Source: a virus
Lineage: Duplodnaviria > Heunggongvirae > Uroviricota > Caudoviricetes
Length of the DNA: 64,000 nucleotides
Reading direction: 5' to 3' (one strand)
IMG/VR virus record: IMGVR_UViG_3300021426_000080
Location: 27,744 to 91,743 of that record
Part shown: positions 11,606 to 52,863 of the stretch, in pieces
Numbering within the stretch: the stretch's first letter is position 1
Layout: the number at the start of each line of letters is the position of its first letter
Program-made: the position numbers and the translations under genes
Notes under the pieces: model-generated
Database searches by the model: none
Told to the model about the DNA's origin: nothing
What the model saw: only the letters and a program-made list of their open reading frames with translations

Positions 11606-11631
11606 TTCGCAAATTTTTCATCTTCTATAAT
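11606..11631 (+). promoter_or_regulatory. phage promoter motif TTCGCAA-N13-TATAAT
   Basis: Matches the 26-bp motif reiterated at least 15 times in the window, with identical 20-nt offset. Confidence 0.5.
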
Positions 11632-11668
11632 AGAGAGCTACTAAATTTATGGAAAAGAGGTTTTCTTA

Positions 11669-11803
11669 ATGAAGAAAGTAATAATCAGTTTAAGGCAATT
11701 TATTGAGAATCACGGCGAGTTTATTAATTCGCTGGCGAAAGGAGTGATTGACGCAAACCGATACATTTCGTCAGGAGGAGGCGGTTATTTAGAAATAAAT
11801 TAA
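11669..11803 (+). CDS. small hypothetical protein (44 aa)
   Basis: RBS GGAAAAGAGG. ATG 11669. Below the 60-aa cut-off of the ORF track. Confidence 0.3.
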   Translation: MKKVIISLRQFIENHGEFINSLAKGVIDANRYISSGGGGYLEIN

Positions 11804-11819
11804 GTGGAAAAGGAGACGG

Positions 11820-11862
11820 GAGTCGCTGTTAATAGCACATGCACAGCGGCTCTCTTCTTTTT
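11820..11862 (+). terminator. putative rho-independent terminator
   Basis: Imperfect hairpin GAGTCGCTGT...ACAGCGGCTCTC followed by a T-rich run. Confidence 0.4.
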
Positions 11863-11922
11863 AAGCCCAAAAAATCCCCGGTTGGAAATTTTTGAAATCA
11901 AAATGGAAGAGGCGAATGCAAT

Positions 11923-12525
11923 GTGGTCATCAGTAAAAAATCAGATCAAATGATCTATCACGAGGAAGATTGTCCGTATGCAAAGAGAATCAAGAAAAAG
12001 TATCTCCGTTATATTTCAGAAGATGCGGCAAAAGAAATGGGCTATCACGAGTGCTCTTATTGCGGCGGTCTTCACGGGATGTATTTGAAATTCCGAGATA
12101 ATCCGAATTATTTTCAAATGCAGCAGAAAGGCTTATCGGTTTCCTATGATCGAGTTGACCGAGGACTGTGCTTTCGAACAGCGAATGGCTTTTGGAAAGT
12201 TCTTGTTCGAGGACCGATTAAGACTTATAAACTCTGGCACTTAAATCATGGTCATTTTGATCCAAGTCTTCCTGATAAAATTCTGATGCGAAGGGACTTT
12301 CACAGGCAGATCGATGTTCAGTCCACATTAAATATTGGAAAAATCATAAGCTATATTTCAAATCATGATAAGGCAAAACGAATCATCGACAATGACTGGA
12401 AAAAGCTTCCGAAGTCAACACCAAAGCAGAAAAAGTATTACAAGCAGGCTCAAAAGAGGGCCAAACAAAAAGAAAACAAGAGAATTGATGAATTATTTAA
12501 AAAGCTTGAAAAAGGAGAACTGTAA
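11923..12525 (+). CDS. zinc-ribbon / lysine-rich DNA-binding-like protein (lysogeny module)
   Basis: CPYAKR...CSYCGG Cys pairs. Strongly basic K-rich C-terminus. GTG start from the track; alternative ATG at 11950. Confidence 0.4.
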   Translation: MVISKKSDQMIYHEEDCPYAKRIKKKYLRYISEDAAKEMGYHECSYCGGLHGMYLKFRDNPNYFQMQQKGLSVSYDRVDRGLCFRTANGFWKVLVRGPIKTYKLWHLNHGHFDPSLPDKILMRRDFHRQIDVQSTLNIGKIISYISNHDKAKRIIDNDWKKLPKSTPKQKKYYKQAQKRAKQKENKRIDELFKKLEKGEL

Positions 12526-12526
12526 A

Positions 12527-13315: not shown

Positions 13316-13327
13316 AGGAGGATACTA

Positions 13328-13525: not shown

Positions 13526-13559
13526 AACGCTATATTATAATAAGGAAGGGATTTATAGA

Positions 13560-14090
13560 ATGAAAACTTACAACTTTAATATTTACAAGTATCACATTAC
13601 CGTGACGATTGAGAAGAAGTCGTATAAGACGGCAGAGGATGAACTTAAGTCTAAAATCGAAGCCATCAATTTGAAATTTGACGAAAAGTATCTAAAACCG
13701 GTAACCGTTGATGAAATTCTTGAATATTGCGGTGTTAAAAAAGATCCAGAAGAAATCAAAATGGAAGAAAAAGCTTCAGATTTATGCGTCCTGGAAGCAG
13801 CCGAAAAGTATATTCAGGCCAAACGAGGCAAACTGGCAGATTCGACAAGAAAAGGCTATATGAATATTGTCGACAATCATCTTAGCGGCATTTGGTTATA
13901 CAGACTTGACAGACTTACCGAAGAGCATCTTCAGGAAGCTTTTGATGCGGAAATTGCAAAAGGTCTCAGCGTGAAGACTCTGAAAGGCTATAGAACATTT
14001 ATCATGAAGGTTCTTGCCGAGTATTGTCCGGACTTTCATCCGAACATTCGTGTAACCAAGGAGGGTGTAAATGAAACTCCCAAAACCTAA
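13560..14090 (+). CDS. integrase N-terminal SAM-like (core-binding) domain protein lacking catalytic domain (truncated integrase paralog)
   Basis: AEKYIQAKRGKLADSTRKGYMNIVDNHLSGIWLYRLDRLTEEHLQEAF..KGLSVKTLKGYRTFIMKVLAEY matches the integrase core-binding domain pattern. No RHRY catalytic residues. Overlaps the int start by 20 nt. Confidence 0.5.
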   Translation: MKTYNFNIYKYHITVTIEKKSYKTAEDELKSKIEAINLKFDEKYLKPVTVDEILEYCGVKKDPEEIKMEEKASDLCVLEAAEKYIQAKRGKLADSTRKGYMNIVDNHLSGIWLYRLDRLTEEHLQEAFDAEIAKGLSVKTLKGYRTFIMKVLAEYCPDFHPNIRVTKEGVNETPKT

Positions 14091-15123
14091 ACAACTTAAA
14101 TCCGGTAATTGGAGAATACAGATCCAAATTAATGGAGAGCGATATTCTCGCACTGGAGCCACAAAGAAAGAAGCTCTTGAGAAAGCTAAGCAAGTTATCG
14201 CTGGCATTGAAGCGGAAAAACGTATTCCTTTGACTCTCGGTAAGGCCATTGACAAATATATTGAAGCTAAGACCGCAGTTCTTTCGCCATCAACCATTCG
14301 CGGATATAAGTCAGTTAGGAGAAATTATTTTCCGAATATTATTGATAAGAATATTTCAGACCTGACCCAGTCAGATATTCAGTTTGCCATGAGTTCGCTC
14401 GCAGCAAAAGGACTATCCCCGAAAACGATCAAAAATGCTCATGGTCTTCTCAATTCTACTTTTGAAATGTTCAGACCAAATTTTACGCTGAGAACAAGAC
14501 TTCCGAAGAGTCAGAAAACCGAAATGCGGATATTCTCTGAAGCTGAAATGAAGAAAGTTTTTGAAGCTGCAAAAGGTGATACATATGAAATTACGATTTT
14601 GCTTGCTGCATGGCTCGGCCTTCGAATGGGTGAGGTCAGAGGCTTGAAGTACGGCGATCTTAAAGATGGAAGACTTCATGTTCATACTACAATTGTTCGC
14701 GATTCAAACGGCAAAGACGTCGAAAAGAGCACAAAGACTACCTCTGGAGACCGCTATATTAAATGCCCAGGAGCAATTCAACATCTGATCGTGGTGAGAA
14801 GGTTAGAGCTTGAAAATTCCGGTATGAATAAAAAGGATATTTCTAAGACTTACGTTTGCCCATGGAAAGATAATACAATCTACAAAAACTTTATCCGGAT
14901 CTGTAAGAAGGCTGGAGTTGAGCCTTGTAGATTCCACGATCTTAGACATTTTATGGCAAGCGAAGGGCATGCTCTTGGAATTCCGAACAAGTATCTGACG
15001 AAACGTATGGGGCATAAGACTGAACATATGCTTCAGAATGTTTATCAGCATACGATTAGCGATATGGTTGATGAATTCGATTCTCTGATTGACGAAAAAA
15101 TGGAGAAATTGTATAATGAATAA
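14071..15123 (+). CDS. int: tyrosine integrase (site-specific recombinase)
   Basis: RBS AAGGAGGG. Arm-binding N-terminus SGNWRIQIQINGERYSRTG. Catalytic residues LRMGEVRGL (Arg), HDLRHF (His-x-x-Arg), GHKTEHMLQNVYQHT (Tyr). Confidence 0.85.
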   Translation: MKLPKPKQLKSGNWRIQIQINGERYSRTGATKKEALEKAKQVIAGIEAEKRIPLTLGKAIDKYIEAKTAVLSPSTIRGYKSVRRNYFPNIIDKNISDLTQSDIQFAMSSLAAKGLSPKTIKNAHGLLNSTFEMFRPNFTLRTRLPKSQKTEMRIFSEAEMKKVFEAAKGDTYEITILLAAWLGLRMGEVRGLKYGDLKDGRLHVHTTIVRDSNGKDVEKSTKTTSGDRYIKCPGAIQHLIVVRRLELENSGMNKKDISKTYVCPWKDNTIYKNFIRICKKAGVEPCRFHDLRHFMASEGHALGIPNKYLTKRMGHKTEHMLQNVYQHTISDMVDEFDSLIDEKMEKLYNE

Positions 15124-15289: not shown

Positions 15290-15328
15290 GGAACGTAGTA
15301 AATACGGGCCAGTTAAGGGGTTTGTATG

Positions 15329-15356
15329 ACGGGTTCGACTCCCATCATCCGCTCCA
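15329..15356 (+). other. tRNA 3'-half fragment (T-arm GGGTTCGACTCCC + acceptor 3' strand + CCA): candidate attP core
   Basis: ACGGG-TTCGACT-CCCAT-CATCCGC-T-CCA. No complementary 5' acceptor strand upstream. Lies 200 nt downstream of int. Confidence 0.5.
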
Positions 15357-17307: not shown

Positions 17308-17335
17308 TTTACATTCGACTTTCTCGTGATATACT
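17308..17335 (+). promoter_or_regulatory. host sigma-A-like promoter (TTTACA-N16-TGaTATACT extended -10)
   Basis: Consensus-like -35 and an extended TG -10. Preceded by direct repeats (T/A)TTCAAATCTGAAA at 17231 and 17264. Confidence 0.5.
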
Positions 17336-17379: not shown

Positions 17380-17655
17380 ATGAAAGTGATATTTTCGGAT
17401 GAAGAGAAGCGTATGGATCGGTTTGATGCCATCCTATGTGAGTATTGTCGGCATTATAGGAAATCCGTGGAAACTGTTGCCCAAAAAGCCGGGTGCAGCA
17501 CAGCAAGCTTATGGAGATATCGTACTCAGGTCGAATCGTTTCGAAAGGCACCACTCGGAGTTATTGCCAACTGTTTAAGGCTTACGAATGTTTCGAACCA
17601 GGATCTTCGTTATATCCTAGGCCTTCCGACGGGTAAAGCCGAAAATGAAAACTGA
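17380..17655 (+). CDS. putative HTH transcriptional regulator (92 aa)
   Basis: RBS AAAAAGGAG. Probable HTH VETVAQKAGCSTASLWRY. Confidence 0.45.
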   Translation: MKVIFSDEEKRMDRFDAILCEYCRHYRKSVETVAQKAGCSTASLWRYRTQVESFRKAPLGVIANCLRLTNVSNQDLRYILGLPTGKAENEN

Positions 17656-17944
17656 ATACACATTGAGTAAGCATCGCTTTTATGAGCTTAAACACTTCTG
17701 TCTCCAATACCCGGAATGGAAGAAGTTATATTCTCAGCTGGACGGCTGGGATGGTAAAGGCGACACGACTTCTCGAGATGGGATCAAGCGTGCTGATATT
17801 CGTCGCAATGTAGAACTGATCGAATACTGCGCCATGATTACAGACCGTGATATTCTTCGGTATGTAACTGAAGGGATTAGTCTACCCGTTGAGCTAAGGT
17901 ATTCTTATAAAATATTCTTCTGGGAATTGAGTAAACGACGGTGA
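17645..17944 (+). CDS. hypothetical regulator-like protein (99 aa), co-transcribed with 17380..17655
   Basis: Overlapping start (translationally coupled). Immediately precedes the first phage-motif promoter. Confidence 0.4.
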   Translation: MKTEYTLSKHRFYELKHFCLQYPEWKKLYSQLDGWDGKGDTTSRDGIKRADIRRNVELIEYCAMITDRDILRYVTEGISLPVELRYSYKIFFWELSKRR

Positions 17945-17953: not shown

Positions 17954-17979
17954 TTCGCAAAATATTCAACTCCTATAAT
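17954..17979 (+). promoter_or_regulatory. phage promoter motif TTCGCAA-N13-TATAAT
   Basis: TTCGCAAAATATTCAACTCCTATAATGGAG. Confidence 0.55.
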
Positions 17980-18023
17980 GGAGAGTTTGACTAACTCGAA
18001 ATTAATAAAAAGGGGTTGTAGTA

Positions 18024-18309: not shown

Positions 18310-18335
18310 TTCGCAAAATATTCAACTCCTATAAT
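18310..18335 (+). promoter_or_regulatory. phage promoter motif TTCGCAA-N13-TATAAT
   Basis: TTCGCAAAATATTCAACTCCTATAATGG, identical to 17954 over 26 nt. Confidence 0.55.
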
Positions 18336-18386
18336 GGTGGACCAATAAATGTGTCTCCAATTTTATATTTTTAGGAGGAATTCAAC

Positions 18387-18714: not shown

Positions 18715-19176
18715 ATGGAAATTCAAGAACGAATCCAAGAATCGAAATGCCCGCTTATCATGGATCTCATGCATTCGGAATTCGAAAAGAAGATGGCAGC
18801 TTTCGTTTCTATTCCGGTTACACAATTTCCGTCGAATGAACAAATCCAAAAATTCGATGAAATGATAGATCAAAAGCTCAGGCAATATTTTCTAGAGCTT
18901 AAGATGATCTGCGATTATTACAAAGATACGTTTATCGAACTTAAAAATGAACAGGAGTTTATCGGACAGAAACAGGGGCTTCTCATTCGCTTAGTCGGTA
19001 TTGAAACAGAAAAGAATGCAACAGCGCTTTTAAATAGTGGATCCGATATTCAAAGAATTGATTCCGAATTAGTCAATATTCTTGGCCGGTATTATGTTTG
19101 GAAAGATTCCATTATTAAATATTATGATCTTTCAGAGGATGAAGAAAGCGATAATGAGAATGATGAAGACTTCTGA
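18715..19176 (+). CDS. hypothetical acidic protein (153 aa)
   Basis: RBS ATAGGAGG. Confidence 0.45.
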   Translation: MEIQERIQESKCPLIMDLMHSEFEKKMAAFVSIPVTQFPSNEQIQKFDEMIDQKLRQYFLELKMICDYYKDTFIELKNEQEFIGQKQGLLIRLVGIETEKNATALLNSGSDIQRIDSELVNILGRYYVWKDSIIKYYDLSEDEESDNENDEDF

Positions 19177-19235
19177 TCGCAAATTAAACAAGCCTATTAG
19201 TGGAACAATTAAAATCTAGAAAGGGGCATGTATTT

Positions 19236-19691: not shown

Positions 19692-19739
19692 CAAAAGAAT
19701 AAGGTGCGTGATATTCACAATCCTTATTCTTTTTCGCAA
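19692..19739 (+). terminator. terminator hairpin; 48-nt unit identical to 20485..20532, fused to promoter motif
   Basis: AAGAATAAGG-N16-CCTTATTCTT then TTTT, then TCGCAA. Confidence 0.7.
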
Positions 19740-19772
19740 TTTATACAGCCTCTTTATTGAGGAGGTGGTTGC

Positions 19773-19880
19773 TTGACGAGTGATCAAGACAGGTATGAAA
19801 CTTTGGCCGACACGGCGATGATGCTGTTATTGTTGGTGATGTTTCTACCAATCAAAAAGATCCTAGACCAGGCATTGTAA
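19773..19880 (+). CDS. possible small hydrophobic peptide (35 aa, TTG start)
   Basis: GAGGAGG 8 nt upstream of TTG. MMLLLLVMFLPI TM-like segment. Weak. Confidence 0.2.
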   Translation: MTSDQDRYETLADTAMMLLLLVMFLPIKKILDQAL

Positions 19881-19944
19881 CCAGAAAGGAGAGCCCTTCG
19901 TTATGAGGGACTCTTCTTTATATTTTTGAAAGGAGAATAAAATC

Positions 19945-20220
19945 ATGGAAGAAAAGATTAAGGACTATATTCTGAAACAGTACGAATCGATTGGGAATTT
20001 GCACAAAATACTTAATGACATTAATGAGTATGTTGCAGAAATGATTACTAAATCTCAGGGCCCTGGTAATCCAAACGGACAGTTATGTCTCATGACTATC
20101 GAGTGCGATGAAAGATATCGTGGAGATTGGCTTTATGCAAATGGCCTTGAAATGTCCTCGGAAGAACGCAATATGTGGAAGCAACTTTCGGAAGAAGTAG
20201 CTAGCATGTTCCGCACATAA
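19945..20220 (+). CDS. hypothetical protein (91 aa)
   Basis: RBS GAAAGGAGAA. Confidence 0.45.
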   Translation: MEEKIKDYILKQYESIGNLHKILNDINEYVAEMITKSQGPGNPNGQLCLMTIECDERYRGDWLYANGLEMSSEERNMWKQLSEEVASMFRT

Positions 20221-20266
20221 AACAGTTCTTATAATGGACAAAAGCCTATTATAAGGAGGATTTAAA

Positions 20267-20484: not shown

Positions 20485-20532
20485 CAAAAGAATAAGGTGC
20501 GTGATATTCACAATCCTTATTCTTTTTCGCAA
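20485..20532 (+). terminator. terminator hairpin; exact repeat of 19692..19739
   Basis: Identical 48-nt sequence. Confidence 0.7.
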
Positions 20533-20770
20533 GAAAAACAATGCTTATAACGGAGAGGTCATGTAAGACCTTTTAACGTATAATGAGAGTGGAATTCCTG
20601 GGTTATGCCGGGGCGGTTGAGATACTGCAACCACGCGAATAGTTCAATAGTAGAACGCTCATGACGCTGAGTCAAATGAGAGACACCTGTTTGAAGCGGG
20701 CAATCCTTATATTTTTATCGCAAGAATTACATGGTTTTTAATAGAGAAATCAGAAAGGAGATAAATTTAT

Positions 20771-21137: not shown

Positions 21138-21165
21138 AGAGGACTAACTTCGGTCCTCTTTTTTC
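21138..21165 (+). terminator. rho-independent terminator
   Basis: AGAGGAC-TAACTTCG-GTCCTCT followed by T6. Confidence 0.65.
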
Positions 21166-21225
21166 TCGCATTATTTACAGCGCCTTTAATGGAAAGTTTT
21201 GTACTAAATGAAAGGAGCTTTAAAA

Positions 21226-21402: not shown

Positions 21403-21476
21403 CAGCCGGCTTGATTTTTCTTGTTGTATTTCTCAAATTAAATAATGCTCTTAATGACGAAAGGAGAATTTTACAC

Positions 21477-22003: not shown

Positions 22004-22122
22004 AACTCGCAAATTAAACAGCCTCTTTAATAGGGAGGTGGAGCTCGAACTAACAAGCAAAGACAAAACGTTAGTCCGGGTTCCTTTTTTTATGTCTAAA
22101 AACTTAAGGAAAGGAGAAGAGT

Positions 22123-22474: not shown

Positions 22475-22741
22475 ATGTGCAAATACTGTAAGCAAATCAT
22501 GCCAGACTATGACGATGATGAATTTGAAGATCTTATTCAAATTCCAGTCGTTCATGGCATCGGAGATTTTGTTACACACGCAGATGACGAATGTCGCGAC
22601 GAAATTGATATTTGTATAGAAGATGAAAAATTGGCCGTTTTCGTATGGCTTGGCGGAGATTGCGAGATGGTAGCAAGCCTTCCAATCGAATACTGCCCGG
22701 TTTGCGGCCAGAAACTCAGTGATTTTATTTCGCAAAAATAA
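22475..22741 (+). CDS. zinc-ribbon protein (88 aa)
   Basis: RBS GAAAGGAGAA. CKYCKQ...CPVCGQ. Confidence 0.45.
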   Translation: MCKYCKQIMPDYDDDEFEDLIQIPVVHGIGDFVTHADDECRDEIDICIEDEKLAVFVWLGGDCEMVASLPIEYCPVCGQKLSDFISQK

Positions 22742-22784
22742 CAGCTTCTTTAATAGAAGATATTAAATTATGGAGGTAATGTTT

Positions 22785-33549: not shown

Positions 33550-33575
33550 TTCGCAATAATTACAGCTCCTATAAT
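33550..33575 (+). promoter_or_regulatory. phage promoter motif TTCGCAA-N13-TATAAT
   Basis: TTCGCAATAATTACAGCTCCTATAATGAAAGGAG. Confidence 0.55.
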
Positions 33576-33591
33576 GAAAGGAGTTGGTCTT

Positions 33592-44723: not shown

Positions 44724-44782
44724 ATAAAAAGAAGGAAGAATCGTAATTTATACAGGCTCCTTAATAGAAAGGGGAGTGTAAT

Positions 44783-45085
44783 ATGGCTTCTTATCAAGAC
44801 AAAATTAATCAAAAACGTATGTCTACAGAAAGTGGAAAAATAGCGTGGTGTATAGACTTTATGCAGCATCCGCCGTTGAATTTCAACAATGACTATTATA
44901 AGGAATTGATAGACGGAATAGATTTATTCGATGATATTTCCGTATTTGAGGACGTATATGTCTATGTGGTTTGGCGGCCCGTGCATTATAAAGGTAATCG
45001 CTATTTGTATAAATACTTGCAGATAGGCATGTCATATGATCAAATGGTCAAGATGCTAGATGCTCAACCTTGGCAATACATATAG
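44783..45085 (+). CDS. hypothetical protein (100 aa)
   Basis: RBS AAAGGGGAGTG. Confidence 0.4.
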   Translation: MASYQDKINQKRMSTESGKIAWCIDFMQHPPLNFNNDYYKELIDGIDLFDDISVFEDVYVYVVWRPVHYKGNRYLYKYLQIGMSYDQMVKMLDAQPWQYI

Positions 45086-45150
45086 AGGATCATTACAGGT
45101 CCTCTAATTTTCGCAAGTTTTACAACTCCTTTTATGAAGGAGGCGATGTT

Positions 45151-45387
45151 ATGTGCTTAACAAAGTATAAACTAATCGATAAAGACGACATAATCGCAGA
45201 AGATTTAATTTCAAAAGTTTATAATATTAATCATTTATTACCATTGTTTGTTAGAGAAACAAACGACAAGGCGCATTTTATGATTATTATAAAAGCACTT
45301 TGGAAGAATTCTTTAAAATATAAAGAAATAAATCGATTAGGGTTTAAAGACTTAACATCAGAGGTTATCAGAGAACACTTAGCGTAA
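45151..45387 (+). CDS. hypothetical protein (78 aa)
   Basis: RBS GAAGGAGG 8 nt upstream of ATG 45151. Confidence 0.4.
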   Translation: MCLTKYKLIDKDDIIAEDLISKVYNINHLLPLFVRETNDKAHFMIIIKALWKNSLKYKEINRLGFKDLTSEVIREHLA

Positions 45388-45423
45388 AAGTTAAGTGTTC
45401 TTCTTTTTTATGGAGGATTCAGA

Positions 45424-45648
45424 ATGTTTGATAATGATGATACCTGGCTTATACTTTTTCTTCTATTATATTCAGCGCAAGAACAAGGTAAAGAAATAAG
45501 TTTCATCGACCTCGAACAAAAGAAGGCAGATGCTGAATATGTAAACAATTGTCCAAATGTCGAGTGGGAGCAGGATATGCACGCCGATATTCCGTTCTGT
45601 ACACTTGACGGCGAAATGTGCAATATGCAGTGTAAAAATCGCAAATAA
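45424..45648 (+). CDS. small Cys-rich protein with N-terminal hydrophobic segment (74 aa)
   Basis: RBS ATGGAGGATTCAGA. Confidence 0.4.
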   Translation: MFDNDDTWLILFLLLYSAQEQGKEISFIDLEQKKADAEYVNNCPNVEWEQDMHADIPFCTLDGEMCNMQCKNRK

Positions 45649-45708
45649 TACAACTCTTATAATGCAGAGAAATCTGACATTATACACTATATTTAAAGGA
45701 GAAAAACT

Positions 45709-45882
45709 ATGAAACACAACATGACAAAGGAAGAGAAACTGAAAGTTCTCAGTAATGTTTCAACAGGAATCGATGGTATTGAGGAGAAACTCAGACATAA
45801 TATTGGCGATGAAGACACAACATTTTTCATTGAGCCGATCCGAAATCTTCTCTATACCATGGAGGAATGTCTGAAATCGTAA
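45709..45882 (+). CDS. small hypothetical protein (57 aa)
   Basis: RBS AAAGGAGAAAAACT. Confidence 0.35.
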   Translation: MKHNMTKEEKLKVLSNVSTGIDGIEEKLRHNIGDEDTTFFIEPIRNLLYTMEECLKS

Positions 45883-45889
45883 CTATATA

Positions 45890-45920
45890 GAAGAGAAGCT
45901 GTTGCACTTCTCTTCCTTTT
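45890..45920 (+). terminator. rho-independent terminator
   Basis: GAAGAGAAG-CTGTTGCA-CTTCTCTTC followed by CTTTT. Confidence 0.6.
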
Positions 45921-45962
45921 CACGCGGACCTTTCGGTTTACTTTTTCTCAAGGAGATCACTT

Positions 45963-46169
45963 ATGAACCTTACAAAAGTCTATATTTACTCTAACATGAC
46001 TGCGCAGAGGGCTCAGGATAAGGTCAATGAGCTAATCGAAGAGTACCGTGAGACCGACAGCACTGTAAACTTCGACCTTCAGATTGAAAACTCTATTGCG
46101 GCAGGGAAATACAGTGAGACTAGATACACATTGGTTGTTTATATTTATAGTTTAGTTATGGAGGGATGA
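45963..46169 (+). CDS. hypothetical protein (68 aa)
   Basis: RBS CAAGGAGATCAC. Confidence 0.4.
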   Translation: MNLTKVYIYSNMTAQRAQDKVNELIEEYRETDSTVNFDLQIENSIAAGKYSETRYTLVVYIYSLVMEG

Positions 46170-46176
46170 TACACGA

Positions 46177-46584
46177 ATGGAAATTAATGCGGAAATCAAT
46201 AAAATTTTCGGTACGGAAATGGAAAAACTCTTTGCTGAGCAGATTTCGGAGGAAGAATTAAGAGATTCTGCGATTAAGTCGTATAATAAATTAAGACACT
46301 CTGGTAGAAGCTCGTCATATTGTGGAAATTACGACAGCGATTTCGATAAGTATTTAAGAGCTGCTATTTTAGATCGCTTTAAAGAGGAAGTAAATAAATA
46401 TCTTCAAACCGAGCAGATTCAGATTGATATTCAGAAGGAAGCGGAAAAACTCGTTAATGACGTTCGAGAAAAGGCAAGGGAGAAAATTCTTGAAAGAGCG
46501 TCGAATACGCTGGTTGAAATCTATACCGGTAGCACACTAACTGAGTCAATTATTATGTTAACAGATGAACTGAGGAGCAGATAA
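46177..46584 (+). CDS. hypothetical protein (135 aa)
   Basis: RBS ATGGAGGGATGA. Confidence 0.45.
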   Translation: MEINAEINKIFGTEMEKLFAEQISEEELRDSAIKSYNKLRHSGRSSSYCGNYDSDFDKYLRAAILDRFKEEVNKYLQTEQIQIDIQKEAEKLVNDVREKAREKILERASNTLVEIYTGSTLTESIIMLTDELRSR

Positions 46585-46818
46585 ATGCAGATTGTTAAAA
46601 ACTTTATTTATGGGCGAGATTGGAGTGGCTATACAAATGCTACGCCGCTGGAAGATCAGATCAATGAATACCTGGAGTATCATCCTGGGTATTCGGTTGC
46701 GACAATGAGTTTGCTCAATGCTTCTGGTTATAAGGAAGCTCTTGTCGTATTCAATGTTCGGGAAGAACGTTATCAGAAACCGGTTGAACAGAATAAGAAA
46801 GTGAAGAACAATGGCTGA
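46585..46818 (+). CDS. hypothetical protein (77 aa)
   Basis: Overlapping start. Confidence 0.4.
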   Translation: MQIVKNFIYGRDWSGYTNATPLEDQINEYLEYHPGYSVATMSLLNASGYKEALVVFNVREERYQKPVEQNKKVKNNG

Positions 46819-46969
46819 AAATACATTTATTCTACTTATTATTGTGGCGCTGATCCTTTCGGTGCTTTGGAAACTTTGATATTCGCAAATTAAACATGGT
46901 TTATAGAGGAGAGAGGTCTCGGTAAGTTACCGGGGCTTCTCTTTTATATTTTAAAAGGAGGATTGCCTT

Positions 46970-47209
46970 ATGATGACCGGACCGCAGAGATGGAAGCATG
47001 GCGATTGGATGCTGAAGGCAAAGATCGAAGCAAAAGAGAAGCAGAGAAGGAAAAAGAGAGATCCGATGCCGACTGATATTTTCAAGTATGATGTGAAAAT
47101 GCGGAATGAGGATTTTGTCGGATACAATCGCAATAATGGGCGCGTGATATTTGAAGCCGAAAGTTACGACGAGGCAAGAAGAGTCCTCGAGGAATTGTAT
47201 TCTGCCTAA
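46970..47209 (+). CDS. hypothetical protein (79 aa)
   Basis: RBS AAAAGGAGGATTGCC. Confidence 0.45.
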   Translation: MMTGPQRWKHGDWMLKAKIEAKEKQRRKKRDPMPTDIFKYDVKMRNEDFVGYNRNNGRVIFEAESYDEARRVLEELYSA

Positions 47210-47263
47210 AAATGTGATATTTTAAAGAAACCAAACGAAAGAAAGGATTAATGGAAACGGAGA

Positions 47264-47527
47264 ATGGAAACCAGGTATATTATTGGATTGATCGTATGTA
47301 TTATCGTATCCATCGCACTTGGATATTTGATCGGCAAAAACAGCAAGAAACCTCTAGGAGATATCGTGTTCGAGACGTATATAGATGACGAAACCGATCA
47401 GATGGCTGTTCGATGCACGTTCAAGCTTGATTTGGACATCGACGAAATCGTGAAAAAAGATTATATTCTATTCGGCGTTAAGAAGAATCGAGACGTTATA
47501 GAGTACTATAAAGCTCAGGAAAAATAG
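47264..47527 (+). CDS. small membrane protein (87 aa)
   Basis: N-terminal TM IIGLIVCIIVSIALGYLIG. Confidence 0.4.
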   Translation: METRYIIGLIVCIIVSIALGYLIGKNSKKPLGDIVFETYIDDETDQMAVRCTFKLDLDIDEIVKKDYILFGVKKNRDVIEYYKAQEK

Positions 47528-47529
47528 AA

Positions 47530-47555
47530 TTCGCAAAATAAACAATCCCTATAAT
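47530..47555 (+). promoter_or_regulatory. phage promoter motif TTCGCAA-N13-TATAAT
   Basis: TTCGCAAAATAAACAATCCCTATAATGGAG. Confidence 0.55.
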
Positions 47556-47598
47556 GGAGCAGAATAACTGCAAATATTAATGAAAAGGGGATTGTAAA

Positions 47599-47841
47599 AT
47601 GTCTGAAATCATCATTGATAATCGTTGCGGTGGAATCGTGAAGCAGGTTCGTCTGCAGCTTAACTGCACTCAAGCGGAACTTGGTAAGAAGATTGGAGTC
47701 GATCAGCCTACCATGTGCCGGATTGAGCGCAGGCAGCAGATGCCGACTGAGCCTGTACTTCAGAAGATCGCCAATCTTGCGGGACTCAATATGAACCAGA
47801 TGACGGGTCAGGAACCTATCAACTACGCAGCTATCTGGTAA
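47599..47841 (+). CDS. XRE/Cro-type HTH regulator (80 aa), monocistronic
   Basis: RBS AAAAGGGGATTG. HTH LNCTQAELGKKIGVDQPTMCRIERRQQMP. Confidence 0.55.
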   Translation: MSEIIIDNRCGGIVKQVRLQLNCTQAELGKKIGVDQPTMCRIERRQQMPTEPVLQKIANLAGLNMNQMTGQEPINYAAIW

Positions 47842-47935
47842 TAAAGCGAAGGGCTTTGATCAAATTGATCAGGGCTCTTCTCTTTTTCTATATAGTAGTT
47901 CGATTAGTGGAGTGAATGGATATTTGAAAGGAGAA

Positions 47936-48076
47936 ATGAAAATGAAGTTTTGGCGTGTTTTGGATAAGCTTACTGAATTCTATATTCCCATCATGGTTAG
48001 TGTTATGGCGTTTTATATTAATTCGGAATACAGAGATCTCAAAGAGAACATTGATTACATTCGTAAGCATGTCTGA
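47936..48076 (+). CDS. small membrane protein (46 aa)
   Basis: RBS GAAAGGAGAA. Possible start at 47942. Confidence 0.35.
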   Translation: MKMKFWRVLDKLTEFYIPIMVSVMAFYINSEYRDLKENIDYIRKHV

Positions 48077-48097
48077 TATTTGAAAGGAGAAATAAAA

Positions 48098-48295
48098 ATG
48101 GTCGAATTCAGCGAACGTGAAAGACGTGCCTGTAGACTTCTGAGCCATCTTAAGTATGATCGTGACACAGATGTGTACACTAAGTGCTGGTTCAATAATA
48201 TGCTCTGTAATATTTCTTATTATATTTTGAAGGTCAATCCGGACAATCTATTCAAGAAGGTTTCGCAGTATGCTAAAGAAAAGGGGAACACCTGA
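48098..48295 (+). CDS. hypothetical protein (65 aa)
   Basis: Leader TGATATTTGAAAGGAGAAATAAAA then ATG. Confidence 0.4.
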   Translation: MVEFSERERRACRLLSHLKYDRDTDVYTKCWFNNMLCNISYYILKVNPDNLFKKVSQYAKEKGNT

Positions 48296-48591
48296 TGGTT
48301 TTAACGTTTATAGATAATTTCCGTTTTAAAGGCGGCGCGAAAGAATGCTCTGATTATAGAGCACTTCTAAATAGAACCGTAAGCTACCTTAATGAATTAC
48401 TTTACGCAAGAGGATACGTTACCGTAAGAGACCTAAACGATCAGTTAGGAAGAAAAAGCGCGTTTGATTCGGATGATTCTCTGTATGGATGGGAAGTACA
48501 GGATGGTCCTATCGAACTCAAGATGCTTCACGACGGAAAATTCAAATTGCATTATCAATTTGAAGCCAAAATTTTGACCTGCATGCTTTGA
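48295..48591 (+). CDS. hypothetical protein (98 aa)
   Basis: ATG overlaps the upstream stop. Confidence 0.4.
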   Translation: MVLTFIDNFRFKGGAKECSDYRALLNRTVSYLNELLYARGYVTVRDLNDQLGRKSAFDSDDSLYGWEVQDGPIELKMLHDGKFKLHYQFEAKILTCML

Positions 48592-48612
48592 TATTTGAAA
48601 GGAGAAATGAAA

Positions 48613-49056
48613 ATGATTAATGCAAACGTAATCACAAAGTTCGGAAAGATGGTTGTTAAAGTCGGCCTTGCTATTGGATCGGTTTATATTCTGTCAAAGG
48701 CGAATGATGAACTCGGAAAATTTGGTTTGAATATTGGGTGCTCGGTTGGAAACGGAATTGATATTCGTCCTGGAGACATTCCGAAGTACAACACTAGGTC
48801 GGTAGAGTTCAATGCAAACAGTGTCACTGAGCGGTCAATTGCTGAGCTGCTTCATGCTTCGTGGAAGACATATTCTACAAACTCGAAGCTCGAATGCGCC
48901 AAGCGTATCTACAACATCGCATTGTCCGGAGATGATAGGACGAAACTGGTTGCGATCCAGGCTCTTGGCCGTATTGCAGACGACTCATATTCTGCTCAGC
49001 TGAAGAATTATGTAAGCAAGGCTATTACTGAGCTTGCAATCGGCAATGACGTTTGA
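48613..49056 (+). CDS. membrane-anchored protein with HEAT-like repeats (147 aa)
   Basis: Leader TTGATATTTGAAAGGAGAAATGAAA then ATG. TM KVGLAIGSVYIL. HEAT-like KLVAIQALGRIADDSYSAQL. Confidence 0.4.
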   Translation: MINANVITKFGKMVVKVGLAIGSVYILSKANDELGKFGLNIGCSVGNGIDIRPGDIPKYNTRSVEFNANSVTERSIAELLHASWKTYSTNSKLECAKRIYNIALSGDDRTKLVAIQALGRIADDSYSAQLKNYVSKAITELAIGNDV

Positions 49057-49069
49057 AAGGAGAATGTAA

Positions 49070-49348
49070 ATGATTATGCGATGGATTTCACGAAAGAATA
49101 AAAGTGAACCAATTTCGGATGATGTTGAGTTCGTAGAAACATTCGGTGGCTGTGTTGGACGAATTGCTTCCGACGATCATCCAAACCATAAACGAATAGC
49201 AATGTACTTTAGAGATGCCTATGATAACGAATCTCCCGTTTATATTTTAAGTCCCAGAGCTGCACGATTCGCTGGATGGCAGCTGTTTAGAAGAGGCGTA
49301 GTTGACGGACTTAAACTTCGACTCGATTATATTAAATACCATAAGTAA
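49070..49348 (+). CDS. hypothetical protein (92 aa)
   Basis: RBS GAAAGGAGAATG. Confidence 0.4.
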   Translation: MIMRWISRKNKSEPISDDVEFVETFGGCVGRIASDDHPNHKRIAMYFRDAYDNESPVYILSPRAARFAGWQLFRRGVVDGLKLRLDYIKYHK

Positions 49349-49368
49349 TAATTTAAAGGAGAATGGAA

Positions 49369-49512
49369 ATGAAAATGATTATTGTTCTTGATAAGATCTG
49401 CCTGCTTGGCATTGTTGGTGTTTCTCTGTATGCTGGATACAAGCTTGGACGGAAAGCTGAGAAACTTGAGCAGAGTCTCAAGCCGAACAAAACCAATTTC
49501 AACAATGATTAA
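49369..49512 (+). CDS. small membrane protein (47 aa)
   Basis: RBS AAAGGAGAATGGAA. TM IIVLDKICLLGIVGVSLYAGY. Confidence 0.35.
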   Translation: MKMIIVLDKICLLGIVGVSLYAGYKLGRKAEKLEQSLKPNKTNFNND

Positions 49513-49528
49513 TTTGGAGGTTTAAATT

Positions 49529-49819
49529 ATGTGTGATTTCTGCAAGAATATTGTTAACAACGATGGAAAATGGAAAAACTCCCTTTTGGCTTCAAGGCAT
49601 TCAAATGATAAGAACCACGGTCTTGACATCATTCTTGGAAAGACGGATGGCAAATTCAAAATTGAAGATGCTAAATTTGTTCGTGATAAATCGATCGATG
49701 CGCCGATTACATATTTGAAAGCCTTTAATTGGCGAAAAGGATCCGATTCAGTAAAGCCTGCGGCATGGACGACAGCCATGGAGATTCATTATTGCCCAAT
49801 TTGTGGCGAAAAACTTTGA
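49529..49819 (+). CDS. zinc-ribbon protein (96 aa)
   Basis: RBS TTGGAGGTTTAAATT. CDFCKN...CPICGEK. Confidence 0.45.
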   Translation: MCDFCKNIVNNDGKWKNSLLASRHSNDKNHGLDIILGKTDGKFKIEDAKFVRDKSIDAPITYLKAFNWRKGSDSVKPAAWTTAMEIHYCPICGEKL

Positions 49820-49851
49820 TATTTTGAACTCTTGAAAGGAGAACTGAAAAC

Positions 49852-50874
49852 ATGAAAGGTACTACTATCGCATTCGCAGCACTCGGACTTATTGATATTG
49901 GTATGATCGTTCTCGATCGTGCCGCAAATCGTCATGGCAGAAAGCTCGCTGAAGCTGAGGCAATCAAGAATCGCGGCGAAGAGGCCAATGCTGTTCTAGA
50001 GGAAGTTAAGAAGCGCTGCGATGCCTATGATGAGCTAATCAAGCGTGAGAAGGTGGAATTCAAGCAGAAGAGAGCTGATTGGCTCGAAGCAAATGCGTTC
50101 AACGCCAAGAAGAAAGATATTCTTGATGGCGTTCCGAATGGTCTCAACGAATTCAAGAAACAGATTGGATATTCTGATGTAATTCAGAGACTTACGGACG
50201 AATACAATGCCGGTGTCGAAGCCGTCAAGAACTCCATTGACTATGACGTAAACAAGAAGAAGTTTGAGAAAGCTATCGCCGATGCCAAGAGCCATTATGA
50301 CAGTCAGAAGGCGCTGTATGACTGTGCCGGCTCTGATATTTCTGATGATGCTATGAAGCTCAGACATGCTGCAGAAGAGGCCATGAATGCCAAGATCAAA
50401 GAGGCTAAGGCAAACCTTGATATTCTTGAGGGCAAGCTTAACGCTGAAGTCGAGAAGCTTACTCAGGTAAAGCAGAATGGCATTCGTGAACTCGAGGAGA
50501 AGATCGCGAAGGAGAAGATTCGTCTGGATCACAAGGCTGACCAGGAGCTCGAGGCACTGAACACAAAGCTCTCTGAAGCAGAACAGGATATTAACAATGC
50601 CATCCTGAATAAGCGGACCGGCGCGGATGCTGAAGCGGAGATTAATCACGCCGATGATATTCGTATCATCCGTGAGCAGAAGAAAGTTGATGCCAAGGCT
50701 GCGGAAGATATTTTCAATGCAAAGCCTGAGACCGTCAAGATTGCAGAATTCCTGAAGGGCCACAAGGTTCCGAAAGTGGTTGTGCCCATGTTCGGTGTTG
50801 TTAGCATGGCGCCTGTTGGATATTTGTCCTATCGCTGGCTCAAGTTCCTTGGGCAGATCATGAGGGCGATGTAA
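49852..50874 (+). CDS. membrane protein with long coiled coil and N- and C-terminal TM helices (340 aa)
   Basis: Leader TTGATATTTTGAACTCTTGAAAGGAGAACTGAAAAC then ATG. N-terminal TM IAFAALGLIDIGMIVL. C-terminal VVPMFGVVSMAPVGYL. Confidence 0.5.
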   Translation: MKGTTIAFAALGLIDIGMIVLDRAANRHGRKLAEAEAIKNRGEEANAVLEEVKKRCDAYDELIKREKVEFKQKRADWLEANAFNAKKKDILDGVPNGLNEFKKQIGYSDVIQRLTDEYNAGVEAVKNSIDYDVNKKKFEKAIADAKSHYDSQKALYDCAGSDISDDAMKLRHAAEEAMNAKIKEAKANLDILEGKLNAEVEKLTQVKQNGIRELEEKIAKEKIRLDHKADQELEALNTKLSEAEQDINNAILNKRTGADAEAEINHADDIRIIREQKKVDAKAAEDIFNAKPETVKIAEFLKGHKVPKVVVPMFGVVSMAPVGYLSYRWLKFLGQIMRAM

Positions 50875-51608
50875 TGAATCCAAAACTGATATTTACGGCA
50901 GCCAAGAAGAATCTTCCATCGATTCTTAGCTGGACTGCTGTAGGTGGCGTTGTTCTGACCGGGTGGCTTACCGATAAAGCTGCCCGGAAGTCAGATCCAA
51001 AGGAACCTTTTAAGAAGCACTGGAAGAATTATATTCCTCCGATCATTGCCGGCGTAGGCACAATCGCATGCGTCGTCGGTTCAAACTGTGCACATTTGAA
51101 GGTTGAAGCAGGACTTGCCGGAGCTGTAGCGTTTTATAAGGCAGCCAAAGAAGACCTTGAAATGGCCGTTTCTGAAGTATATGGAGAAGAAGGCCTTGGA
51201 CAAGTGAAGAAAGCAGCAAATGATATTAATCCTGATCTTTCGGCTATGTATCATGATGCGCCAAGAAGCATTCGCATGTTCGAGCCGTATACGAGCCAGT
51301 GGTTTTACACAACTCCTGAAGAACTTCTCTGGGCTGAGCTTACTGCAAACAAGATGCTGTCTCAAAGAGGCACTGTAAAGCTCAATGATATTTTGAAGCT
51401 TTATAAGAATTGCAAGCCAAAGCCAATTGGAGAAACTCTTGGCTGGAGCTGGGAAGATGAAATGTTTAATGAATCGGCCAGCTGGTACTGTAATGGCGGA
51501 TGGATTGATATTTGTCCTCAGTACGAGGAACGAAACGGAAAACGATGCTACGTTCTGGATTACGGAATCAATCCGATTGATATTTCGCAAATTTTACAAG
51601 GTGTTTAG
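50874..51608 (+). CDS. membrane protein, member of three-gene paralog family (with 51985 and 54645)
   Basis: Two TM helices then a C-terminal domain RGTVKLNDILKLYKN...LGWSWEDE. Compare DGYLSVNDWFCELN...LCWTAES and RGHVFLNEILDAIG...LGWCMGLGDD. Confidence 0.5.
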   Translation: MNPKLIFTAAKKNLPSILSWTAVGGVVLTGWLTDKAARKSDPKEPFKKHWKNYIPPIIAGVGTIACVVGSNCAHLKVEAGLAGAVAFYKAAKEDLEMAVSEVYGEEGLGQVKKAANDINPDLSAMYHDAPRSIRMFEPYTSQWFYTTPEELLWAELTANKMLSQRGTVKLNDILKLYKNCKPKPIGETLGWSWEDEMFNESASWYCNGGWIDICPQYEERNGKRCYVLDYGINPIDISQILQGV

Positions 51609-51716
51609 TAGAGAGATTAGTGACGCATTCACTGATATTTGGTGAGTTCCCGATAAAGCCGGGTTACATCTCTCTTAATTTTTGTGTGCTCGAAATGAGC
51701 AGAAAGGAGAATGGAA

Positions 51717-51860
51717 ATGAAAAACTTGACGTGTGGGATGTTGTTGATCTGTGGAGCGTGTCTGCTGATCGAGCTGCAGATGCTTGGAACTGATCTTCAG
51801 ATTCGAAAGCTGGAGAATAGGATTAATGAAATGACTCAGACAAAGGAGGATGCGGAATGA
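51717..51860 (+). CDS. small membrane protein (47 aa)
   Basis: RBS GAAAGGAGAATGGAA. TM LTCGMLLICGACLLI. Confidence 0.35.
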   Translation: MKNLTCGMLLICGACLLIELQMLGTDLQIRKLENRINEMTQTKEDAE

Positions 51861-51988
51861 AAGTACTTTGTGGAGCGGTTGGCGTATCAATTATATTTGC
51901 AACTGGATTCGTAGCAGGTGTCATTGCTGGTATTGCCATCGCTATGACTCCGGACGCGAAAGATTCGGTATCGGAGGATAAGCAATGA
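51857..51988 (+). CDS. small membrane protein (43 aa)
   Basis: RBS AAGGAGGATGCGGA. TM VGVSIIFATGFVAGVIAGIAIAM. Confidence 0.35.
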   Translation: MKVLCGAVGVSIIFATGFVAGVIAGIAIAMTPDAKDSVSEDKQ

Positions 51989-52797
51989 ATTTCTCAACAA
52001 TCGTAAAAGGATGTAAGATGGCCGTAAAATACAGCGGAAAGCAAATCGTGAAACACGCGCCTGGAATCTTGTGCGGATTTGGTACAGGAGGTGTCGGTTT
52101 TGCTCTCTGGCTTATGGCAAAGAAAGCTCCGGAAGCCAAGAAGGAACTCGATGCCGAAAAGGCCCAATGGGAAGCGACTGAAGATAAGGAGAAGCGAAAT
52201 AAAGCCGATTATATTTTTAAGCTTGTTCGCATTGGCGCAAAGCATTATTGGGTCGTGATCTCAGTTGCTACAGGAGCTATTGTGTGTTTCTGGCTCGCGA
52301 ATCGAATTAATTTCAAGCGGCTCATGTCTGCGTTGACAGCACTTGGAATCAGCACCAAGGGCAAGGAGGAGCTCGAGGAGAAGATCAAAGAACTGGACGG
52401 AGAGAAGCATCTGCAGAAAATTAAGGATGAGATCGATGCCGATAGAATCAAGAATGATCCTCCGGTCCAAGATAAGATTATTGATACAGGACTCGGAACG
52501 CATCTTTGCTATGAGGCAATCACCGGAAGATATTTCTATTCAAACATTGAGCGAATTAAACGGGCGGTTATTACGTGTCGAGACTATCTTCAAAAAGATG
52601 GATATTTGTCAGTGAATGACTGGTTCTGTGAATTAAATCTCGATACAACTGATTTGCAGCTCTGTTGGACGGCAGAGAGTATTGATGAAGTCAATGAGTT
52701 TGATATTGAGACGAGTTCTCAGCTTACTCCTGAAGGTGTTCCGGTCTTGGTAATCAGATACACGACGAACCCGACCATGGAGCGACGAGACTGGTAA
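51985..52797 (+). CDS. membrane protein, paralog family member
   Basis: See 50874..51608. Confidence 0.5.
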   Translation: MNFSTIVKGCKMAVKYSGKQIVKHAPGILCGFGTGGVGFALWLMAKKAPEAKKELDAEKAQWEATEDKEKRNKADYIFKLVRIGAKHYWVVISVATGAIVCFWLANRINFKRLMSALTALGISTKGKEELEEKIKELDGEKHLQKIKDEIDADRIKNDPPVQDKIIDTGLGTHLCYEAITGRYFYSNIERIKRAVITCRDYLQKDGYLSVNDWFCELNLDTTDLQLCWTAESIDEVNEFDIETSSQLTPEGVPVLVIRYTTNPTMERRDW

Positions 52798-52837
52798 CTG
52801 ATTGATATTCCAATAGGGGCTGTACGAGTATGCATAA

Positions 52838-52863
52838 ATCGCAAAAAATACAGTCCCTATAAT
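52838..52863 (+). promoter_or_regulatory. phage promoter motif (A)TCGCAA-N13-TATAAT
   Basis: ATCGCAAAAAATACAGTCCCTATAATGGTAGG. Confidence 0.5.

Follow-up and report, generated by a model that had tools for sequence, protein, structure and literature searches.

Copies of the motif in the window

The DNA analysed here, called the window throughout, is a stretch of 64,000 nucleotides (nt) from the IMG/VR virus record IMGVR_UViG_3300021426_000080 (positions 27,744 to 91,743 of that record), a member of the Caudoviricetes. All genes in the window are on the + strand. A motif of the form TTCGCAA-N13-TATAAT recurs along it, from the end of a late tail and lysis unit to the operon of a phage-encoded RNA polymerase at the right-hand end. 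The data presented below indicate that this element is very probably a promoter of about 31 bp, specific to one clade of phages, at which the start of transcription adjoins the hexamer.

The exact pattern matches the window six times against 0.00 expected and, when up to two mismatches are allowed, there are 27 matches against 4.35 expected (the largest number in a shuffle was 10). An iterated scan with a position-weight matrix gave 24 sites, all on the + strand and ranging from 11505 to 62894. The matrix was trained on the window copies themselves, so only the gap in score is meaningful and the absolute scores are not; the weakest of the 24 sites scores 27 bits, the next position 6.7 bits and the best position on the - strand 8.2 bits. 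A preliminary description of this DNA had reported at least 15 copies. All 16 positions that it listed are among the 24 (the approximate ones within 10 nt), and the eight further copies are those at 11505, 19176, 20210, 21430, 44740, 51584, 53315 and 62894, the last being beyond the range then described. The 20-nt offset from TTCGCAA to TATAAT, which had been proposed to be rigid, is invariant, since all 24 copies fit one ungapped matrix on one strand; the idea of a reiterated, rigid and strand-specific promoter is borne out.

The consensus of the window copies is tTCGCAA-A(W5)-ACA-RCTCC-TATAAT-GGAGAG, and the spacer is 14 nt when the motif is read as TTCGCA/TATAAT. Conservation is strongest at CGC and, 8 nt onward, at CA rather than at TATAAT, and the hexamer variants TTTAAT, TTTATT and TATAGT are frequent. 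Seventeen of the copies are intergenic and the remainder overlap the final codons of the preceding gene. Every copy precedes either a gene or a structured RNA that has no open reading frame (ORF). Where an ORF was called, its start codon is 14 to about 190 nt beyond the hexamer, and for 17 copies the distance is 51 nt or less. The scan found no copy in the late region at 1-11.4 kb, where the genes for tail proteins, endolysin and holin lie.

Transcription units headed by the motif

In what follows, copies are given from the first base of TTCGCAA, and +1 is the first base after the hexamer. The leftmost copy (11505..11536, hexamer TATAGT at 11525-11530) is just downstream of a strong intrinsic terminator (from 11456 to 11487 or 11497) that closes the late unit. 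It would drive a tRNA-like RNA with a shortened anticodon arm that begins at +3 (11533..11598) and that scores 44.1 bits (E 7.7e-7) with the Rfam tRNA model, for which the gathering score is 29. This RNA was seen only with Rfam, as ARAGORN called no tRNA in the window. The T-run that ends it is followed directly by an exact copy of the motif (11606..11637).

Two more exact copies lie at 17954..17985, where pattern and matrix scan agree, and at 18310..18341, which has a hairpin and T-run in front. The copies at 19733..19764 and 20526..20557 are both fused to the same 40-nt terminator, AAAAGAATAAGGTGCGTGATATTCACAATCCTTATTCTTT, which occupies 19693-19732 and 20486-20525; the former copy is followed by a 186-nt structured leader and the latter by a candidate non-coding RNA of 165 nt that has no ORF and ends in a terminator (20552-20716). 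Pattern and matrix scan also agree on copies at 20210..20241 (TCCGCAC...TATAAT), 20717..20748, 22006..22037 and 22729..22760, and the copy at 21165..21196 is directly 3' of a terminator (21138-21159). Weaker copies at 19176..19207 (ATCGCAA...ATTAGT) and 21430..21461 (TTCTCAA...CTTAAT) came from the matrix scan.

Further to the right, the exact copy at 33550..33581 has a ribosome-binding site from about +3 and an ATG at +17, that at 35950..35981 has a GGAGG ribosome-binding site at +1 and an ATG at +15, and that at 45110..45141, which follows a hairpin, has its ribosome-binding site at +2 and its ATG at +16. The exact copy at 47530..47561 is upstream of a gene for an Xre-type helix-turn-helix (HTH) protein (47599-47841). 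Pattern and matrix scan both gave 45638..45669 and 52838..52869, and the matrix scan gave weaker copies at 44740..44771 and 53315..53346 (AACGCAA...CTTAAT). The copy at 46882..46913 runs into a 16-bp hairpin (46909-46943) with a U-run to 46954, and that at 51584..51615 into a 66-nt structured RNA (51610-51675), the closing stem of which uses +1 to +8, and a U-run. The copy with the best score of all (62894..62925) is the syntenic promoter of an endonuclease-exonuclease-RNA polymerase operon, and the hairpin and U-run that begin at its +1 (62920..62949) are likely to be an attenuator or 5' stabiliser. Short structured RNAs that extend from +1 of a promoter to a hairpin and U-run can be delimited at 19759-19944, 20552-20716, 46908-46954 and 51610-51684. 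Some directly precede the ribosome-binding site of the next gene, and they are candidate small RNAs or attenuators.

Sites resembling intrinsic terminators are enriched at 10.4-24 kb (26 against 10.1 expected) and at 56.3-64 kb (13 against 5.2). By a crude test, 12 of the 24 copies have a T-rich tail and a stable fold immediately upstream, compared with 3% of random positions. By eye, clear intrinsic terminators precede 9-10 copies, including those at 11505, 11606, 18310, 19733, 20526, 20717, 21165, 21430 and 45110. The terminator-promoter cassettes of the preliminary description are therefore present for about 40% of the copies. In the related Faecalibacterium phage FP_oengus there is a family of near-identical terminators, each immediately upstream of a copy of the motif, and the fusion of terminator to promoter is a clade-wide habit.

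Conservation of the motif in related phages

A near-identity search of the 17-24 kb region against GenBank phages gave no match. The helicase/PolB fusion protein of the window (1315 amino acids, 57141-61088) is 53% identical to that of FP_oengus, 44-49% identical to those of Arthrobacter, Gordonia, Streptomyces, Microbacterium, Curtobacterium and Rhodococcus phages and 37-40% identical to those of Lactococcus phages P078, P162 and 1706. A cross-phylum 'supercluster' of phages has been described, of which the signature gene encodes an HTH-bearing protein with motifs like those of RNA-dependent RNA polymerases (RdRPs) and YonO (bioRxiv 10.1101/842583), and by sequence the phage in the window belongs to it. 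Close relatives (97% identity in the DNA polymerase) are found among IMG/VR contigs and remoter ones in gut and rumen metagenomes, and related prophages or binned contigs are present in Blautia, Lachnospira, other Lachnospiraceae and Oscillospiraceae assemblies. The window encodes RadC and a tyrosine integrase (14071-15123); the latter is preceded, downstream of the promoter at 11606 and on the same strand as all genes, by a shorter integrase-like ORF (13560-14090, phrog_1). No repressor gene was identified near the integrase.

Applied to 79 related IMG/VR loci, the window-trained matrix detects copies on the + strand in nearly every one, with a total of five on the - strand. Three blocks (CGCR, ACA and TWTWAT-G-purines) recur with identical spacing in 366 unique sites from 73 sources, among which the identity in the DNA polymerase is only 50-60%. 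In the logo of these sites, positions -24, -23 and -22 are C (97%), G (96%) and C (92%), followed by R at -21, A from -20 to -18 and W from -17 to -15. Positions -14, -13 and -12 are A (78%), C (97%) and A (97%). C at -7 (61%) precedes the hexamer, in which -6 is T (83%), -5 is A (60%) or T (36%), -4 is T (95%), -3 is W, -2 is A (91%) and -1 is T (97%). The base at +1 is G (86%) or A (14%), and at least 96% of those at +2 to +4 are purines. As the sites were gathered with the window-trained matrix, the weaker columns are somewhat inflated, whereas the strong ones are evident from the unprocessed sequences.

The same element can be read in isolated phages from three hosts that are not related to one another. 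FP_oengus (50% G+C) has 12 copies of ACGCGAAAAAWWCAGCCTCCTTTATGGAAGGA between 2283 and 27681 and none in its late region (28-58 kb). There are eight copies of TCGCGTAAATTACAyGGGCTATAATGA in Arthrobacter phage Cheesy and 12 copies of TCGCAtATTTTACAcGcCCTATArTGAGACCC in Streptomyces phage DrGrey (59.5% G+C). Lactococcus phage P118 has about 10 copies of TTTTACATACCCTATAATGAAAGGA, in which AATTTTA takes the place of the CGC block and only the downstream half is kept. Because the CGC and ACA blocks are kept across two phyla, host sigma factors are ruled out as the cause of this conservation, and the sequence comparison points to a character of the clade and not of the host. Recognition by a phage-encoded factor, which had been suggested before, is the best reading of a motif conserved in phages of Clostridia and Actinobacteria.

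The partial palindrome CTCC...GGAG that had been noted on either side of the hexamer stands as a symmetry of the consensus but finds no support as a structure. Over the 366 sites, the 5 nt that precede the hexamer are no more complementary to any 5-nt window downstream of it than in shuffled pairings (z < 2), and for lack of such covariation the idea of a functional CTCC-TATAAT-GGAG hairpin was rejected.

Position of the start site

In open complexes of the sigma-70 type, transcription starts 6-9 nt downstream of the -10 element. The preliminary description read TATAAT in this way, with a start about 7 nt downstream, and the features that follow the motif do not agree with this. The 5' end of the tRNA-like RNA in the window is 3 nt past the hexamer, and in nine related loci a tRNA or tRNA-like gene called by ARAGORN starts at +2 to +6. 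Of 354 copies, about 100 have a ribosome-binding site that begins 0-6 nt past the hexamer, and 83 have the start codon 15-19 nt past it (examples in the window are 33550, 35950, 44740 and 45110). Stable hairpins have +1 to +8 as their 5' arm at the window copies 20526, 46882, 51584 and 62894. Since a sigma-type start would cut into the tRNA-like genes, the ribosome-binding sites and the hairpins, we infer that transcription starts at G+1 or within 1-3 nt of it, which would place the hexamer at about -6 to -1 and not at a sigma -10. The preliminary description had taken starts that do not map about 7 nt downstream as evidence against its promoter; on the present data that reasoning would probably dismiss the element although it is a promoter. 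In the relatives, a promoter is often followed directly by a tRNA-like gene whose 'anticodon' has 2 or 4 nt, as at 2935-3006 in FP_oengus and in the loci L015, L019, L062 and L079.

The doubt expressed earlier about TTCGCA as a sigma-A -35 box proved justified. No -35 element was found, the third position of the putative box is G in only 11-13% of the 366 sites, and the logo has no TG extension of a -10. Position 2 of the hexamer, where sigma requires A, is A in 60% of the sites and T in 36%, and is T or G in about 40% altogether, while position 6 is T in 97%. The hexamers CTTTAT, TTTAAT and TTTTAT together account for 101 of the 366 sites, and the hexamer of FP_oengus is almost always CTTTAT. 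In a consensus scan, sigma-70-like sites were not in excess (30 against 33.5 expected, and 18 against 16.8), and only one of the 24 window copies was called sigma-70-like (62894, with TTGATT at an 18-nt spacer). With no -35, a weak A at position 2 and a start that would adjoin the hexamer, the motif is not a sigma-A promoter.

The two-barrel RNA polymerase and its operon

The last 211 nt of the window (63790-64000) contain the first 70 codons of a large gene that runs off its end. This gene follows that of an exonuclease (63230..63784; phrog_3953 by PHROGs match), the second gene of the operon. A full homologue of 922 amino acids (L007:16659-19427) is encoded 3' of the exonuclease gene in L007, a close relative with a 97% identical DNA polymerase. 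Its counterpart in FP_oengus is gp55, which is annotated 'RNA-dependent RNA polymerase' and has homologues in 250 phage records. Pfam identifies Sigma70_r4_2 and HTH_23 at residues 895-921 of gp55 and gives a weak RdRP match. SGADFDGD is invariant in an alignment of four distant members, which have two HTH motifs in the N-terminal part and a third in the C-terminal part. A profile search against PDB matched the HTH parts only, and the N-terminal fragment of 70 residues, used as a protein query, retrieved nothing but fragments. For a protein with 99% identity to the L007 polymerase, the AlphaFold model has a mean predicted local distance difference test score (pLDDT) of 77, and a Foldseek search with this model matched QDE-1 (E 1e-9) and RDR2. 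Because the catalytic motif is invariant and the model matches QDE-1 and RDR2, the signature protein of the clade, of about 920 amino acids, is a two-barrel RNA polymerase of the QDE-1/YonO-like type. There are more than 8000 homologues in metagenomes; few have a source name, and those are called 'transcriptional regulator'. No protein related to transcription other than this polymerase is conserved throughout the supercluster (bioRxiv 10.1101/842583).

In 33 of 47 polymerase-bearing loci a copy of the motif is found 853-1105 nt upstream of the polymerase start, before the genes for the endonuclease and the exonuclease. Of 30 distinct copies at polymerase operons, about 25, that of FP_oengus included, have a hairpin that begins at +1 to +4 and then a U-run. 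The stem sequences differ between phages, and this conserved 5' arrangement is probably an attenuator, a terminator or a stabiliser. Beyond the polymerase gene most contigs continue for 280-590 nt, which places this gene at the right end of a linear genome, as in isolated actinophages.

Near the N terminus of the polymerase, the peptide L-x-HYGT-x-R-x-SGRYPWGSG-x-NP (residues 20-45; 63790-63920 in the window) is invariant from Lactococcus to Streptomyces phages, and yet disorder is predicted for it (pLDDT about 30). It may serve as a signal for docking, packaging or processing.

Recognition of the motif

The reading that we favour, and to which we give about as much belief as doubt, is that the motif copies are promoters of the phage's own two-barrel polymerase, the gene for which starts at 63790. 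In its favour are the non-sigma geometry, the conservation of the motif over two phyla, the fact that no other transcription-related protein is common to the supercluster, and the precedent of phage P23-45, whose two-barrel polymerases use promoter motifs of their own. The promoter reads C-24 G-23 C-22 R-21, A-14 C-13 A-12, T-6 W T W A T-1 and G+1, with purines to +6, and the two N-terminal and one C-terminal HTH motifs could contact the three conserved blocks, which are about one helical turn apart. The promoters would head many short units consisting of small early or middle genes, structured RNAs and the tRNA-like RNA, often insulated by a terminator directly upstream. One would head the polymerase's own operon, where the hairpin and U-run at +1 probably attenuate or stabilise the transcript. 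We infer both that this polymerase is the reader, and not host RNA polymerase together with some other phage factor, and that the HTH motifs pair with the blocks. A hint of co-variation between the second HTH and the CGC block comes from its recognition helix, which is ES[ST]hR in four phages with CGC-type promoters and PGSVT in Lactococcus phage P118, the promoters of which are without the CGC block. Products of the 17380-17944 region had been put forward as candidate factors. They have no similarity to transcription proteins in Pfam or PHROGs, and the polymerase with its three HTH motifs, which was absent from the preliminary description, is a better candidate. All relatives examined that have the polymerase also have the motif (in Lactococcus phages, its downstream half), and the collections hold no close relative without the polymerase. 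Listeria and Enterococcus phages were considered as controls with the DNA polymerase only and were dropped, because their matches covered only part of PolB.

Several observations weigh against this reading. The co-variation of HTH and CGC block depends on one contrasting lineage, and the window-trained matrix inflates the apparent conservation outside the strongest columns. The polymerase operon is behind the same promoter in the window and in 33 of the 47 loci, so the first enzyme would need another route, for which weak host initiation, read-through and a virion-carried polymerase are candidates. In Lachnospiraceae genomes there are relatives in the form of prophages or binned contigs, and their induction has to start from host RNA polymerase. 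YonO of SPbeta transcribes late genes, and its promoter sequence was left undetermined (PMC5467207). The late region is without the motif in FP_oengus, Cheesy, P118 and DrGrey, and a copy before virion genes is found only in L007. This layout fits equally well an arrangement in which the host reads the motif and the phage polymerase reads an unseen late promoter. A search upstream of structural genes recognised no shared late promoter. Only in Cheesy, at the left end (L164:690-720) and just upstream of the first rightward late genes, is there a sequence, GGTGCTATAAT, that has an extended -10 (TGnTATAAT, here TGcTATAAT) and no CGC or ACA block; it may be a host-type late promoter.

One form of such an arrangement is that host RNA polymerase uses the hexamer through sigma-A, that a phage adaptor bound at CGC/ACA replaces the -35 contact in the manner of MotA/AsiA, and that the two-barrel enzyme acts late only. 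This would give a layout like that of T4 middle promoters, with a box centred near -30 (in sigma numbering), TATAAT and no -35, and would avoid the bootstrapping problem by making the polymerase operon the last motif-driven unit before the late genes. The motif-free late region of four complete genomes and the confinement of SPbeta YonO to late genes (PMC5467207) agree with it, and sigma-A-like sites at 15089-15117 and 17308-17335 could express an early factor. We nevertheless consider it unlikely. A sigma -10 does not allow the implied start at +1 to +3, about 40% of the sites do not have the A that sigma requires at hexamer position 2, and no small DNA-binding protein is conserved across the supercluster. 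Moreover, Pfam and PHROGs gave no MotA-, AsiA- or sigma-like protein in the window, the 17380-17944 products included, although very remote analogues are possible.

It is still less probable that the copies are plain strong early promoters for an unmodified sigma-A holoenzyme, with the additional conserved bases arising from duplication of terminator-promoter cassettes. The perfect TATAAT of many copies, the TTGATT at an 18-nt spacer in copy 62894 and the repeated adjoining terminators (19733 and 20526, and in FP_oengus) would fit this, but recent duplication cannot have produced the same blocks at the same spacing in phages that infect Streptomyces, Arthrobacter, Faecalibacterium and rumen Clostridia and have core proteins that are 42-55% identical. 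Neither a -35 nor a TG extension is present, the hexamer is CTTTAT in almost all copies of FP_oengus, the implied start is again at +1 to +3, and a temperate phage would have 24 independent sigma-A promoters to silence. Finally, strong terminators abut the 5' edge of 9-12 window copies and of many in the relatives, so units such as the tRNA-like RNA at 11533-11598 have no other promoter. There is also no enrichment of sigma-70-like sites that could supply long precursors and no covarying RNA structure flanking the hexamer. It is thus highly improbable that the motif serves not initiation but 5'-end processing of RNA just after UAUAAU, or is a repressor operator, even though cleavage could make apparent 5' ends at +1 to +3 and ribosome-binding sites overlap with the conserved purine run of the motif, as they do with the targets of T4 RegB.

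To return to the phage polymerase as reader, a stronger version of this proposal is conceivable but rather doubtful. It holds that a sigma-less single-chain polymerase finds tripartite 31-bp promoters (CGCR/ACA/TWTWAT-G) by itself through three fused HTH motifs, that this has remained fixed through moves between Actinobacteria and Firmicutes, and that the site at its own operon may be a two-polymerase switch. Host RNA polymerase would there use the hexamer as a -10, start at about +7 and skip the 5' arm of the hairpin, so that the first polymerase is made. The phage enzyme would start at +1 and transcribe the whole terminator, which would limit its own synthesis.

Comparison with known promoters

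The motif resembles the promoters of T7, T3 and SP6 in being a rigid, ungapped and strand-specific sequence that is reiterated, with a TATA-like box directly before the start and a purine-rich initial transcribed sequence. It forms a single ungapped block with 86% G at +1 and at least 96% purine at +2 to +4, and 5' stem-loops from +1 are a further likeness to T7-like promoters. The T7 promoter reads CACTATA followed by GGGAGACC, and its counterpart in DrGrey reads CCCTATAGT followed by GAGACCC. Unlike the T7-like enzymes, the polymerase here is of the two-barrel QDE-1/YonO-like type and not of the Pol I family, for which no domain was found in Pfam scans of the window ORFs. The motif is also longer (about -26 to +6) and has three blocks parted by weakly conserved A/T-rich or variable bases. 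The likeness in sequence is convergent.

YonO of SPbeta has in common with the polymerase of this clade two double-psi beta-barrels, a DFDGD catalytic loop (DxDGD in the general form found here), a phage origin and a single chain, and an exonuclease gene (yonJ) is nearby. The two proteins are too distant for BLAST, and no fused HTH has been reported for YonO. YonO is also associated with one late promoter (PMC5467207), whereas there are 8-24 promoters per genome here, in the early/middle region. The matrix gave no match in the yonN-yonK gap that contains P(YonO), a weak result because the position of the start could not be placed exactly on the phage record. In phage P23-45, each of the single-chain two-barrel polymerases has a promoter motif of its own (bioRxiv 10.1101/2022.12.01.518664). 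These are virion and non-virion enzymes with motifs of AT-rich and of GC-rich type, and family, motifs and host all differ from those here; start sites and polymerase occupancy were measured for P23-45.

T4 middle promoters (a MotA box at -30 with a sigma-70 -10) similarly have a box about 30 bp upstream that replaces the -35 and is paired with a TATAAT-like hexamer. They differ in that the start implied here is not sigma-like, no relatives of MotA or AsiA were found, and the motif is common to phages of two phyla. With sigma-A/sigma-70 promoters the motif shares the TATAAT-like hexamer and A/T-rich DNA upstream, but it has no -35 at 16-18 bp, A in only 60% of sites at position 2, a start 1-3 nt on, and conserved CGC and ACA blocks. 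The element would belong with the phage-polymerase-specific promoters, here for an uncharacterised polymerase family. We found no description of it in the literature on Arthrobacter, Microbacterium and Lactococcus 1706 phages, YonO-like enzymes or ReqiPepy6, although several of the queries were too broad to be informative.

How single-chain polymerases of the YonO/QDE-1-like type, regarded as resembling the ancestor from which all cellular RNA polymerases derive, find their promoters was left open in the founding paper (PMC5467207), and no later answer was found in the literature searched. The present clade offers a test system, with a sharp promoter that occurs 8-24 times per genome and a polymerase of about 920 amino acids to which candidate DNA-reading modules are fused. 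As there are cultivable members on Arthrobacter, Streptomyces, Gordonia, Lactococcus and Faecalibacterium, promoter recognition by such enzymes becomes directly testable. The motif can also serve the annotation of transcription units, both for hundreds of SEA-PHAGES genomes and for viromes of gut and rumen. Should the enzyme prove self-sufficient, it would provide a compact orthogonal transcription system for Gram-positive hosts.

Other features of the window and its relatives

The most strand-asymmetric hexamer of the window is GATATT, with 161 occurrences on the + strand against a first-order expectation of 37, and 13 on the - strand against 28. Its occurrences are distributed over the three codon frames as 83/29/21, with 28 between genes; they number 0.9 per kb in the late region and up to 4 per kb elsewhere, and are densest at 44000-64000. 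The same bias is present in relatives of the Firmicutes type (L007, 96/2; L041, 61/1; L058, 59/0; FP_oengus, 62/7) but not in Cheesy (27/23), P118 (56/35) or L004 (12/9). GATATT is a polar signal at the DNA level.

In L007, the polymerase gene is followed (L007:19700-20600, which corresponds to DNA immediately past the right end of the window) by a 1.2-kb AT-rich non-coding stretch with about nine copies of TAAAGATATTTG. A G/C-rich inverted-repeat signature, CCCCGGAGGGGG...TCTCCGGGGGAG, lies 3' of these repeats and is like the left ends of Cheesy and P118 and a site in FP_oengus. This stretch is probably a genome terminus or packaging region, or an origin. In the genome of DrGrey (L179), GGGGTTTGGGTTTCG occurs about 10 times.

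The middle region of the window encodes three DUF6353 paralogues (50874-51608, 51985-52797 and 54645-55655), and FP_oengus also has three. In the tail region, two adjacent proteins (4382-6543) have BspA-type leucine-rich repeats and DUF6273 and are likely to be receptor-binding proteins.

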